From NCBI GenBank assembly GCA_048938295.1, contig JBHLMI010000037.1, positions 1 through 22,287 of the forward strand: 22,287 nucleotides of DNA. The letters run 5' to 3'. The stretch is from Promethearchaeota archaeon (GTDB lineage Archaea; Asgardarchaeota; Hermodarchaeia; Hermodarchaeales; Hermodarchaeaceae). Of this stretch, positions 592-3,908 are shown piece by piece. The first letter of the stretch is position 1, and each line of letters begins with the position of its first letter. A program made the position numbers and the translations under genes. The notes under the pieces were generated by a model. The model made no database searches. It was not told where the DNA came from and was given only the letters and a program-made list of their open reading frames with translations.

Positions 592-1143
592 TTACTCATC
601 CTGAGGCATTCGGTCTCCTAGTTGATAATAGTGAAAGTCGCCTCCGGGGGCCCAGATAACGGGGTGGACTTTCTGCATGTCAAGTTTCCCCGCTGTGAGA
701 CAGTTGGGATTGACATAGGATTTAACAACACGTCCAATAATGCCGTCGTTTTGCTCATAATCTAAGATTTCTGCAACCTTACATTCGATGTTAATCGGAC
801 ATTGCTGAATCATGGGTGCGGTGTTCAACTCGCCATAAAACGTGTCAAAAAGAGTGCTTTTGTCAAAATCCCGTCCAGATTTACTACCACAAACGGCAAC
901 TTCCTTGATGAGGCTTTCCGTAGGCACGTTAACACTGAATGTGCCCTGCTCGTGTATTCCGATTCGCGTATATCGTTTTTTGTATAAGCTAAAGAACAGA
1001 TATCGCCCAAAATCAAATGGGCACATGTATCCAATCACTAGGTAATTGGGTACATCGTTGACGAGAGCACCTACCAATGCAACAGGAAGGGGACCAAACA
1101 TGTTCTTATTAAAAATCTCCTTCTTTTGATATTGGCTAATCAT
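592..1143 (-). CDS. Flavin reductase-like / flavoredoxin family FMN-binding protein
   Basis: Motifs PLPVALVGA, GTFSVNVP, CGSKSGRDFDK, APMIQQCPINIECKV are typical of the family. Start placed at ATG 1143; 1164 and later ATGs are alternatives. Confidence 0.85.
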   Translation of the reverse strand: MISQYQKKEIFNKNMFGPLPVALVGALVNDVPNYLVIGYMCPFDFGRYLFFSLYKKRYTRIGIHEQGTFSVNVPTESLIKEVAVCGSKSGRDFDKSTLFDTFYGELNTAPMIQQCPINIECKVAEILDYEQNDGIIGRVVKSYVNPNCLTAGKLDMQKVHPVIWAPGGDFHYYQLGDRMPQDE

Positions 1144-1208
1144 ATCGAATATCACCACTAGCAAATAGACAAAGGTGCCAAGTTTTCCATATTGGAAAGT
1201 TTGTGAAT

Positions 1209-1952
1209 TTACGGCGTGGGTTTGAAAGCTTCAATCTTTGCGCTTGTTGCGATGTTAAAGGGAACCTCACTCACTATTCGTATGTCGATAAATCCGGCGT
1301 CACGAATAAGTTGAAGGTACTCTTCTTTGAGGATAGCACCGCCTAGGCAACCCGTGTAGGTAGCTACTTCGTCTCGGGTTTCTTGTGGGAGAGAGGCTTC
1401 TAATACGATATCAGAGATGAGCATTCGTCCTCCAGGCCGGAGAACTCGGAAGGATTCTTGGAATACTTTGGCTTTATCCGGGGCGAGGTTGATCACGCAA
1501 TTACTAATAATAACATCTACACTTTCGTCTTCTATAGGAAGTGCTTCGATATCCCCAGATCGGAATTCAACGTTTTTTGCGCCAAGTTTCTCAGCGTTTT
1601 CCCTAGCCTTCTCAATCATGGCCAGCGTCATATCTACACCAATCACGTGGCCCGTTTTCCCAACTTGTCGGGCTGCCATAAATGCATCTAGTCCCGCGCC
1701 ACTACCTAAATCCAATACAACTTCGCCTTCTTTCAGACCAGCAAGGGCGGTGGGGTTTCCACATCCAGCAAAAGATTCTGTCACTGATTCGGGAAGATCC
1801 TCAATTGAATATCCGAGAGTTTTCGCATATTCACTTCGTGTGCCTGACCCGCAACAAGACCCTCTGGATTGAGCTACTTTTGCATAGGTTTTTCGCACTT
1901 CTTCCTTGATTTCTTCATCATCCATTTCAGTGATACGTTTCGTTTCAGTCAT
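1209..1952 (-). CDS. arsM: Arsenite S-adenosylmethionine methyltransferase
   Basis: SCCG, FAGCGNP, VLDLGSGAGLD (SAM motif I), IISNCVINL, YTGCLGGA: the conserved ArsM cysteine positions are present. Likely start ATG 1952 (MTETKR). Confidence 0.9.
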   Translation of the reverse strand: MTETKRITEMDDEEIKEEVRKTYAKVAQSRGSCCGSGTRSEYAKTLGYSIEDLPESVTESFAGCGNPTALAGLKEGEVVLDLGSGAGLDAFMAARQVGKTGHVIGVDMTLAMIEKARENAEKLGAKNVEFRSGDIEALPIEDESVDVIISNCVINLAPDKAKVFQESFRVLRPGGRMLISDIVLEASLPQETRDEVATYTGCLGGAILKEEYLQLIRDAGFIDIRIVSEVPFNIATSAKIEAFKPTP

Positions 1953-1968
1953 TTCAATACACCGAAAA

Positions 1969-2036
1969 TATCGGTTATCCGATATGTTTGTAGGCGTTAG
2001 AACACGGACACATTTAAATGTATCGGGCACCCAATA
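1969..2036. promoter_or_regulatory. Divergent arsM/padR promoter with two palindromic operator-like sites
   Basis: TATCGGTTATCCGATA (1969-1984) and TATCGGGCACCCAATA (2021-2036). A TTTAAA TATA box at 2013-2018 is 25-30 bp before the padR ATG. Confidence 0.75.
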
Positions 2037-2042
2037 ACACTT

Positions 2043-2384
2043 ATGTCAGAAGAAAATAATCCTGATGAATGCTGCCCCCCAGACTGCTGTGATATGCGGG
2101 GTATGCTATCATTTCAGATTCTCTGGGAGCTTGGGAAAATGCCTATGAATGGCCAAGAGCTAGCTGAGCAAATCGGGCTCCGACGTGGCACAAAACCTTC
2201 GCCCGGAACGATTTACCCAGCGCTCAAAGAACTCGCTCAAAAAAACTTGATTAGAGGGGAAAAGAAAGGGCGTGAAGTGACTTATACACTTACCGAGGAA
2301 GGGCGCATAGGATTGGATGTGGCCGCACGGTATTTTTATCGGGTCTTCCGTGAAATACTCGAGGCCAGTCGATCTGCGGAATAG
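2043..2384 (+). CDS. PadR-family winged-helix transcriptional regulator with an N-terminal CC-x3-CC motif
   Basis: PSPGTIYPALKEL...YTLTEEG is the PadR signature. N-terminus ECCPPDCCDMRG. Confidence 0.9.
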   Translation: MSEENNPDECCPPDCCDMRGMLSFQILWELGKMPMNGQELAEQIGLRRGTKPSPGTIYPALKELAQKNLIRGEKKGREVTYTLTEEGRIGLDVAARYFYRVFREILEASRSAE

Positions 2385-2441
2385 TTACCAATCTATTGTG
2401 GGCTTGTAATCTCTGCTGTTCTTGTAGTGGGTTGGTGTTTT

Positions 2442-2509
2442 ATTTAAATATCGGGTACCCAATACATTTAAATATCGGGTACCCAATACTATGTATCGGA
2501 CACCCAATA
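2442..2509. repeat. Tandem array of three operator-like palindromes: a perfect 24-bp duplication plus one degenerate copy
   Basis: ATTTAAATATCGGGTACCCAATAC occurs twice (2442-2465, 2466-2489), then TATCGGACACCCAATA (2494-2509). Same motif as 1969-1984 and 2021-2036. Confidence 0.9.
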
Positions 2510-2526
2510 AATACGAGGTAGATAAA

Positions 2527-2628
2527 ATGACAACCAATAAGAAATGGTGTAAACTCTGTTGCCCAACAGCAAAAATCGCCAATGATGGAAAAGCATTCGT
2601 TAAAGCCCTAATTTACAGTCGACGATAA
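2527..2628 (+). CDS. Small Cys-rich peptide (33 aa, CxxCC), putative metalloid/metal-binding
   Basis: MTTNKKWCKLCCPTAKIANDGKAFVKALIYSRR*. Preceded by GAGGT (SD-like) and the TATA/operator array. Below the ORF-track size cutoff. Confidence 0.55.
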   Translation: MTTNKKWCKLCCPTAKIANDGKAFVKALIYSRR

Positions 2629-2662: not shown

Positions 2663-3319
2663 ATGACGAAAGTTAGGAACACTCCCTCACCTACTCCAAA
2701 AAGCCAACCACCCCTGCAACTTGAAGTCACCAAAGATTTCTTCCAAGTGCTACAAAAGCGTCATAGTATTCGGAAATACAAATCCTATGATATTCCTGAT
2801 TCTGATTTGGAAAAAATTCTTCAAGCCGCTCGACTCGCACCATCAACAAATAATAGCCAATCATGGCGCTTCATCGTTGTCCGAGATCCTGAAACCATAA
2901 AACTTCTAAGTCAGCCATCTCAGCAACGATTCATTGCTAACGCAAATGCGATTATTGTGGTGCTCGGGGAACGACAAAGCTCATGTTGTCCAGGCAACCA
3001 AGCGCGATGGCATCTTCAAGATCCAATGATTGCAACAGAACACCTAGTGTTGGCTGCAACAGCACTGGGTTATGGCACCTGCTGGGTTGCCGCCTATGAA
3101 TCGCGAAGTGTTGAATTCATTCAACGAATTAAAACAGAACTAGAAATCCCTGAGAACGCCGATATCATTGTTTTAGTGGCAATTGGTGTACCTGATGAAC
3201 ATCCTTCCTCCCGTTCTCGAAAGGCCTTAGAAGAGATTGCATTTGATGGAAAATATGGAATACCTTGGAGCGTTACGAACCAAGAAGATGAATCTAGATC
3301 ACATGCTTCTGCAATCTGA
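2663..3319 (+). CDS. Nitroreductase family flavoprotein
   Basis: KRHSIRKY, AARLAPSTNNSQSWRFIVV, LAATALGYGTCWV. Carries an internal SCCP motif. Confidence 0.9.
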   Translation: MTKVRNTPSPTPKSQPPLQLEVTKDFFQVLQKRHSIRKYKSYDIPDSDLEKILQAARLAPSTNNSQSWRFIVVRDPETIKLLSQPSQQRFIANANAIIVVLGERQSSCCPGNQARWHLQDPMIATEHLVLAATALGYGTCWVAAYESRSVEFIQRIKTELEIPENADIIVLVAIGVPDEHPSSRSRKALEEIAFDGKYGIPWSVTNQEDESRSHASAI

Positions 3320-3908
3320 GCTCATCACGAATGGGTATATTCGCAAATCCAGGAAACGAACCTCCCAGTTTCTTAGAAACAACATTCGGAACGACCTCAA
3401 ACAATTGAAAGCCTACTCGCTGGTAGAAGGCAAGAGCTGGCAGGTTATCATTAGTCGTCACGACAAAGAGCAGTTGACGCCCTTGTTCCTTGGCAATTTT
3501 CTCGATATGGGACATCAGATTTCTTCCGATGCCACATCCTTGAAATTGTGGAAGGACCCCTAACGCTAGGATGAGTACCACATCTGTTCGGAATGGCGTG
3601 TAAAAGAGGAACCCACCTATCCCATTATCATTTTCTGCGATCATGGCAGGGTGTTCAGTCACCTTGAATTGTTGATCAAACATCAGTTGCATCGGATCTC
3701 CCCAAAACAAGGTCACTAACGCTTTAAGGGACTCCGAATCCTCACAGGATGCTTGACGAATTCGATACTCACATTGTTTCCGCGAAGCACACTTGGTGCA
3801 CTTGACGCGTATTCGTGCATCATTTGCACAAACTAGCTCTCCACAATGTGAACAGGAATACTCCGCATGATTTTGGCAGAGAGAACAGGACTCATAGTCA
3901 ATTGGCAT
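3294..3908 (-). CDS. GNAT N-acetyltransferase with an N-terminal Cys-rich zinc-finger-like domain
   Basis: Acetyl-CoA motif VLPQFQGCGIG, TTNDNLPALAFYQRVGF and C-terminal IPIRDEL. N-terminus CxxC-x7-CxxC-x4-C-x9-CxxC. Confidence 0.85.
   Translation of the reverse strand: MPIDYESCSLCQNHAEYSCSHCGELVCANDARIRVKCTKCASRKQCEYRIRQASCEDSESLKALVTLFWGDPMQLMFDQQFKVTEHPAMIAENDNGIGGFLFYTPFRTDVVLILALGVLPQFQGCGIGRNLMSHIEKIAKEQGRQLLFVVTTNDNLPALAFYQRVGFQLFEVVPNVVSKKLGGSFPGFANIPIRDELRLQKHVI

Follow-up and report, generated by a model that had tools for sequence, protein, structure and literature searches.

PadR-type and arsenic-responsive repressors

Bacterial repressors of the PadR family, such as B. subtilis PadR, L. 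lactis LmrR and the B. cereus PadRs, combine a single-domain fold built on the PF03551 winged helix with palindromes that lie in the promoters of the repressor gene itself and of a detoxification gene transcribed divergently from it. We find the same arrangement in a Promethearchaeota archaeon of the Hermodarchaeales (GenBank assembly GCA_048938295.1), where a 22,287-nt stretch, contig JBHLMI010000037.1 from position 1 to 22,287 (analysed as a whole and referred to as the window), carries a padR gene divergent from arsM, the gene of arsenite S-adenosylmethionine methyltransferase, and five copies of a 16-bp palindrome which, from their conservation and placement, are very probably the operators of this PadR. 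The locus departs from the bacterial systems in its operator, which reads TATYGG-RYRY-CCRATA where theirs reads ATGT-N8-ACAT (a consensus not required for family membership), in its archaeal promoters with TATA box and B recognition element (BRE), in its target arsM, and in its regulator, which has an N-terminal tag of four cysteines (Cys4) as against their hydrophobic pocket for aromatic ligands.

The ArsR/SmtB family, with R773 ArsR, C. glutamicum ArsR1 (Cys15-Cys16, Cys55) and A. ferrooxidans ArsR (Cys95-96-102) as examples, offers a parallel in proposed logic, namely an autoregulated, small, dimeric winged-helix ars repressor which leaves the DNA when arsenite, As(III), binds a cluster of vicinal cysteines, and a parallel in layout, as an ars gene (here arsM) is adjacent and divergent with the sites in between. 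The scaffold of the Hermodarchaeal regulator is a different one, its cysteine motif is CC-x3-CC and its metalloid binding is putative. Soft-metal binding by a PadR has a precedent in Rv3488 of M. tuberculosis, a single-domain protein crystallised with cadmium (PDB 5zi8, 7wh4) and among the closest solved folds (template modelling (TM) score ~0.7), although it lacks the CCPPDCC tag and governs another regulon, and the NCBIfam model of Rv3488 scores 26.5 bits on our PadR (cut-off 140). RosR of Halobacterium salinarum (PDB 6qfd, 6qh0, 6qil, with DNA) is likewise an archaeal winged helix of the same fold class that reads a pseudo-palindrome in a stress response, but shares only ~24% identity, is without the cysteine tag, recognises another DNA motif and controls a large oxidative-stress regulon. 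In operator placement the locus would resemble MDR1 of Archaeoglobus and Phr and LrpA of Pyrococcus, whose operators lie directly 3' of the TATA box over the transcription start, and whose binding just past the TATA box blocks RNA polymerase recruitment; these belong to other protein families, and for our locus the mechanism is proposed from geometry.

A literature search on PadR, arsM or arsenite, Asgard or other archaea and the cysteine motif found no description of this regulator. One survey reports arsM and acr3 as widespread in sediment Asgard archaea and names no regulator (PMC10060404), and another paper mentions just a database-predicted PadR link in a bacterium (PMC6016940). The sequencing runs listed in a search for expression data were all DNA metagenomes, from sediment, mangrove and soil, with none of RNA. 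Experiments have as yet hardly touched the control of transcription in Asgard archaea. At this locus the sequence alone is enough to read off a regulator, the exact DNA site and promoter geometry that go with it, and a small regulon made up of padR, arsM, a nitroreductase gene and a small open reading frame (ORF).

Five palindromic sites at the padR locus

The window was searched on both strands with the pattern TATCGGNNNNCCRATA (TATCGG-N4-CCRATA), using 100 shuffles as background. Six strand-matches were found against 0.00 expected, the perfect palindrome at 1969-1984 counting on both strands. The five sites (O1-O5, listed without strand) and the two genes they adjoin are as follows.

1969-1984: O1, TATCGGTTATCCGATA, a perfect palindrome and candidate operator at the arsM promoter, separated from the arsM ATG by 16 nt
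2021-2036: O2, the candidate autoregulatory operator, preceded by the padR TATA box and followed by the padR ATG (2043)
2449-2464: O3, abutting the upstream (BRE) side of a conserved TATA box
2473-2488: O4, immediately 3' of the same conserved TATA box
2494-2509: O5, over the expected transcription start
1209-1952, minus strand: arsM, arsenite S-adenosylmethionine methyltransferase (NCBIfam NF008823, 316.6 bits, cut-off 263), divergent from padR
2043-2384, plus strand: padR, encoding a 113-aa single-domain PadR of subfamily 2 (PF03551, 42.9 bits, cut-off 27)

The pattern search and a base-by-base reading of the coordinates agree, and both place the sites exactly where the original prediction, made from the window alone, had reported five copies of TATCGG-N4-CC(A/G)ATA. 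The whole assembly (2,519,385 bases in 66 contigs, 91.6% complete, the window being contig C57) holds no strict copy beyond these five. Scored with a weight matrix derived from orthologous sites, the five reach 22-27 bits, 8 bits clear of the next-best position in the genome (14.5 bits), and neither the strict pattern, a relaxed pattern nor the matrix revealed a further regulon member in this genome. Such a matrix scan had been proposed along with the sites; in the genome at hand the regulon, as judged from these searches, is the padR locus only, and related genomes have further site-bearing genes (below). One loose match, TATTAGGTAACCAATA on contig C36, is mismatched at a fixed position.

A matrix of 107 sites gave the fuller consensus TATYGG-RYRY-CCRATA, in which the relatives have C or T at position 4 and G or A at position 13. 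The spacer, whose positions were not used in selecting the sites, follows R-Y-R-Y at 91-99% of the 107 sites. The site forms a dyad of 16 bp whose two half-sites are centred 10 bp from each other, which fits a dimer.

The sites are conserved in close relatives

A PadR-based search recovered relatives among metagenome-assembled genomes of Hermodarchaeota, Thorarchaeota and Promethearchaeota, from which we took ten close genomes (PadR identity 77-83%) and aligned the intergenic DNA on the arsM-padR side (alignment A1) and around O3-O5 (alignment A2), with 10-11 sequences in each. All five sites are present in the nine relatives with contigs covering the full stretch, and the tenth contig, which stops inside padR, holds the two upstream sites. 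The ten fixed positions of the motif are 99-100% identical, against 78% for the other intergenic columns in A1 and 63% in A2. Downstream of padR, the ~70 bp from the stop codon to O3 cannot be aligned, and the next 95 bp, with three sites, a TATA box and a ribosome-binding site, are conserved. Spacing is also held almost constant, with O1 and O2 52 bp apart from start to start in nine of the ten relatives (51 bp in one), O3 and O4 24 bp apart in nine, and O4 and O5 21-22 bp apart in all. By these comparisons the sites are phylogenetic footprints. One genome of the same genus (G098, 83% complete) is the only one of the family in which Cys4-padR, arsM and any copy of the motif were not found; the module may have been lost there, or may merely not have been assembled as a unit.

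The motif follows the PadR across Asgard genomes

We then compared 400 Asgard genomes, 84 of which encode a PadR with the Cys4 tag. The strict 16-mer, TATYGGRYRYCCRATA, is present in 90 of them, comprising 79 of the 84 that encode Cys4-PadR and, with a single site apiece, 11 of the 316 that do not, while a reversed-pattern control matches 5 of the 400. ArsM is more widely distributed, being encoded in 218 genomes, and since only 4 of the 136 genomes that have arsM and lack Cys4-PadR hold a site, the motif follows padR and not arsM. Three of these four sites could be placed, none of them on the arsM contig. Wherever loci were examined (Hermodarchaeota, Thorarchaeota and other lineages), padR and arsM diverge from one another across an intergenic region that holds one to three sites (35/35 loci).

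The sites sit in probable repressor positions on the promoters

The conserved sites lie at defined distances from the promoter elements and from the genes downstream of padR.

2013-2018, plus strand: padR TATA box, TTTAAA, nearly invariant in A1
2467-2472, plus strand: TATA box TTTAAA of the small-ORF/nitroreductase promoter, CATTTAAATAT being invariant in all ten A2 sequences
2443-2448, plus strand: TTTAAA directly 5' of O3, peculiar to the window and not conserved in any of the nine aligned relatives
2515-2519, plus strand: Shine-Dalgarno sequence GAGGT of the small ORF, 7 nt before it and invariant in A2
2527-2628, plus strand: 33-codon small ORF (MTTNKKW.KLCCP...YSRR), which comes first after the triple operator
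2663-3319, plus strand: gene of a nitroreductase-family flavoprotein (PF00881, 93.4 bits), a predicted regulon member

At padR, 2 nt separate the TATA box from the 16-bp site and 6 nt separate the site from the ATG, and this layout recurs beyond the window: of 33 loci, 27 have a TATA-like hexamer whose end lies 2 nt 5' of the padR-proximal site, and 21 have a gap of 6 nt from site to ATG. Base-by-base reading found no Shine-Dalgarno sequence before the padR ATG at 2043. The 24 nt between TATA box and ATG match the usual archaeal distance from TATA box to transcription start, so the padR mRNA is probably leaderless, in which case O2 would span about -22 to -7. The layout is that expected of a repressor site on such a promoter.

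The small-ORF/nitroreductase promoter has a single conserved TATA box, with O3 ending 2 nt upstream of it, over the BRE, and O4 abutting its other side. By analogy with the padR promoter, transcription would start ~24-25 nt past the TATA box, near 2497, a position covered by O5. This arrangement supports a separate promoter for the small ORF and the nitroreductase gene, served by O3-O5. On the arsM side O1 lies just upstream of a GGTG ribosome-binding-like element, and two candidates, both unconfirmed, present themselves for the TATA box, a conserved ACAAACATAT beside O1 and a conserved block at ~1996-2006.

The original prediction had described much of this geometry. Its placement of O1, with perfect arms 17 bp before the arsM ATG, is correct when counted from the start of the site to the ATG at 1952, and its second copy does lie between the TATA box and the padR ATG (box 2013-2018, site 2021-2036, ATG 2043). 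It had also noted three copies directly following a TTTAAA box, which is literally so (2013-2018, 2443-2448 and 2467-2472), but only the first and the last of these boxes are conserved. The box at 2443-2448 was rejected as a promoter element on its unconserved A2 columns and is probably none.

A PadR with an N-terminal cysteine tag

The regulator begins with CCPPDCC (Cys10, 11, 15 and 16), just before helix 1. The protein collection contains more than 1,100 homologues of it, and CC(P)PDCCDMRG or a close variant occurs in all full-length members among the 120 homologue clusters listed; the recognition-helix residues PGTIYPALK and the stretch CCPPDCCDMRG are invariant or nearly so across the family. 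The PF03551 match covers residues 27-90. An AlphaFold2 model (predicted local distance difference test score, pLDDT, 84.7) has helices at 13-32, 37-48 and 54-66, strands at 70-83 and a helix at 85-112, and places Cys10/11 in a flexible N-terminal segment and Cys15/16 where helix 1 makes its first turn. The top Foldseek matches are TA0346, Rv3488 and LmrR (probability 1.00, TM 0.63-0.75), with RosR also near. PF01022 (HTH_5) gave no match in the PadR at E<=0.01, and the NCBIfam metalloregulator model NF033788 scores 25.8 bits, below its cut-off of 55. By hidden Markov model and by fold the regulator is thus a member of the PadR family, in a special Cys4-tagged subfamily, and no member of ArsR/SmtB.

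Cysteine tags also occur at arsM on proteins of another kind. In Asgard genomes without Cys4-PadR, arsM is directly preceded in four loci by the gene of a ~95-aa AbrB/MazE-type protein with an N-terminal CC-x7-9-CC tag.

L120, 1021-1332: AbrB/MazE-type protein gene at arsM
L121, 1196-1474: AbrB/MazE-type protein gene at arsM
L122, 2416-2703, minus strand: AbrB/MazE-type protein gene at arsM
L127, 2596-2877, minus strand: AbrB/MazE-type protein gene at arsM

Two of the four proteins match PF04014, at 31-33 bits, and together they may represent a second kind of cysteine-tagged arsM regulator. At a further locus (L124, 2479-2868) a PadR of another Asgard family (PF03551, 52 bits), divergent from arsM, has a C-terminal cysteine cluster (CCPEGD...C.C), and at L126 a classical ArsR stands at arsM instead of a CC-tagged protein. 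The presence of CC-tagged regulators of other folds beside arsM, in what is a small sample, supports the tag as the sensing part.

The regulon in related lineages

The nitroreductase gene appears to be a core regulon member even where it is unlinked from padR. In a second Hermodarchaeota genus (g2; L055 and L056) its orthologue is on another contig, unlinked from padR, with one to three sites before it, and in the Thorarchaeota family all 17 orthologues found, again unlinked from padR, have one or two sites (0-1 mismatch) within 100 bp upstream, usually as abutting copies. Among the additional sites that were read, other genes carry them singly or rarely. These are a second arsM with three sites (L072), an ACR3 arsenite pump with two (L065; TIGR00832, 421 bits), a DUF2284 gene (L069), an HD-domain gene and a hydrolase gene. 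In two genomes of the same genus (L057, 2019-2034; L058, 367-382) one operator copy lies directly past a TTATATA box and ~90-100 bp before an old-yellow-enzyme-type (Oxidored_FMN) gene (PF00724, 135.6 bits); the genome of the window holds only a paralogue of this gene at 32% identity, and no operator-like site outside the padR locus. ACR3 was rejected as a general target, as sites occur in 1 of 19 PadR-positive Thorarchaeota genomes checked and none precedes the ACR3 of the genome studied here.

That ACR3 efflux gene (contig C18, 4301-5257; TIGR00832, 304 bits) is isolated: none of its neighbours is ArsR-like, and no PadR site lies upstream of it. The genome also has a second arsM (contig C4, 57863-58540; NF008823, 312 bits), divergent from L-serine dehydratase-like genes and without a PadR-type site. 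A perfect 18-bp palindrome, TGATACGATATCGTATCA, lies at 57801-57818 of contig C4, 44 nt before the ATG of this second arsM, and may be an operator of another regulator.

A proposed model of repression and arsenic-type release

Phylogenetic footprints, co-occurrence with the PadR and the geometry of the padR promoter support the proposal that the palindrome is the cognate operator for autorepression and for arsM. In the model that we favour, and consider likely as a whole, a PadR dimer probably binds each site with one winged helix per TATYGG half-site. At O2 it would fill the space from the padR TATA box to the mRNA start, giving autorepression; at O1 it would cover the arsM core promoter and repress arsM together with the flavin reductase gene behind it; and at O3, O4 and O5, which flank the lone conserved TATA box and cover the expected start of the small-ORF/nitroreductase operon, it would form a triple lock with the tightest repression of all. 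Because a protein bound at these promoter positions should hinder recruitment of transcription factor B (TFB) or of RNA polymerase, we hold with good confidence that the PadR acts as a repressor. A thiol-binding metalloid, most likely As(III) or methylarsenite, would then bind the cysteines of CCPPDCC and free the repressor from the DNA, switching on arsM, the nitroreductase gene and padR itself. An arsenic species as the signal, plausible though held less firmly than repression, is suggested by the invariant Cys4 tag and the universal partnership with arsM; vicinal cysteine pairs are the As(III) binding mode of ArsR proteins and of ArsD.

Several observations weigh against this model. The motif is unlike the operators of characterised bacterial PadRs, and the counts of 79/84 and 11/316 come from related genomes and so overstate independence. 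The case for arsenic leans chiefly on arsM; the ACR3 and second arsM genes of the genome have no site, and ACR3 sites are also rare among the Thorarchaeota (1/19). Flavin oxidoreductases (nitroreductase, flavin reductase, old yellow enzyme) make up most of the rest of the regulon, and such enzymes are also typical of electrophile or thiol-stress regulons.

These last points bear most directly on a reading which keeps PadR and operators as described and changes the signal, with the Cys4 tag responding to thiol-reactive electrophiles, to oxidants or to some other soft metal or metalloid (Sb, Cd, Hg, Cu), in which case arsM would be just one detoxification target among several. The abundance of flavin oxidoreductases and the rarity of ACR3 in the regulon fit it, as does the presence of the Cd-binding Rv3488 and the oxidative-stress regulator RosR among the structurally closest proteins. 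Set against it, arsM is the one partner in all 35 loci and scores above the curated arsenite methyltransferase cut-off, a second arsM, ACR3 and a DUF2284 gene also carry sites (the DUF2284 domain is found fused to ArsM in NCBIfam NF041536), and CC-tagged regulators of other folds adjoin arsM; we regard a signal other than arsenic as possible, though a good deal less probable than the favoured model. A dual-function PadR, repressing at O2, O4 and O5 and activating from O3, and possibly from O1, upstream of or beside the TATA box, is improbable. O3 does lie on the BRE-proximal side of its TATA box, a position used by some archaeal activators, but it ends only 2 nt from the box and so overlaps the BRE, which favours occlusion, and the sites at the Thorarchaeota nitroreductase genes are simply two abutting copies close to the gene.

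That a transcription factor other than the adjacent PadR binds the palindromes, with the link to padR merely positional, might be suspected from locus L072, which has an Lrp/AsnC-type gene beside its sites. We consider this very unlikely, as the motif tracks the PadR across the 400 genomes, a site lies within the padR promoter itself in almost every locus, and no second regulator gene is conserved in the loci examined. Still harder to credit is a structural role, as RNA or DNA hairpins (a padR terminator or a processing site) or as remnants of a small mobile repeat, which the palindromic form of the sites and the position of three of them just past the padR stop codon might suggest. No covariation links the symmetric positions 4 and 13 (TA 36, CA 28, TG 18, CG 5), so over half of the sites would mispair in a stem, as fits two independent half-sites, and the hairpin or terminator reading was rejected on this ground; in addition, no T-tract lies 3' of the sites, which are restricted to promoters belonging to one recurring set of genes and are absent from the rest of the genome.

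If, as in the favoured model, the cysteine tag senses arsenic, the locus would represent an arsenic switch of a kind other than ArsR, in the archaeal lineage nearest to eukaryotes, and a compact part for biosensors, and would point to a flavoenzyme consistently co-regulated with arsenic methylation. More speculatively, and in our view rather doubtful as a whole, Cys4-PadR could be an undescribed As(III)/methylarsenite sensor that replaces ArsR at arsM in Hermodarchaeota and Thorarchaeota, the nitroreductase an unrecognised arsenic enzyme, and CC tags a modular, repeatedly evolved sensor. Were this true, the nitroreductase might, for instance, act on methylated arsenicals to set their redox state or assist the ArsM cycle, and cysteine-pair tags on PadR and AbrB/MazE scaffolds at arsM would be a metalloid-sensing device of Asgard archaea.

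Neighbouring genes

One further gene of the locus lies downstream of arsM.

592-1164, minus strand: flavin reductase-like gene (PF01613, 58.5 bits), start codon uncertain

It is probably on one transcript with arsM, and is syntenic with it in all nine relatives with a contig reaching that far. The nitroreductase gene is likewise syntenic in nine relatives with contigs of sufficient reach, and the order flavin reductase, arsM, padR, small ORF, nitroreductase is common to the ten relatives as far as their contigs extend.

The small ORF is an open frame of 32-33 codons in all nine relatives covering the stretch; it starts with ATG or TTG, contains a conserved CCP motif and ends in YSRR. Its pairwise differences fall mostly in third codon positions (154/126/257 for positions 1/2/3). 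A Pfam search matched no family to it, and it is confined to the Hermodarchaeota genus with the linked nitroreductase gene.

Convergent with the nitroreductase gene, and without an operator site, the window encodes a GNAT acetyltransferase (3294-3908, minus strand) with an N-terminal cysteine-rich, zinc-ribbon-like extension, which is syntenic in several relatives. In one Thorarchaeota locus (L014, 3774-3920, minus strand) a called ORF of 48 aa, without a Pfam family, lies between arsM and the operator region.

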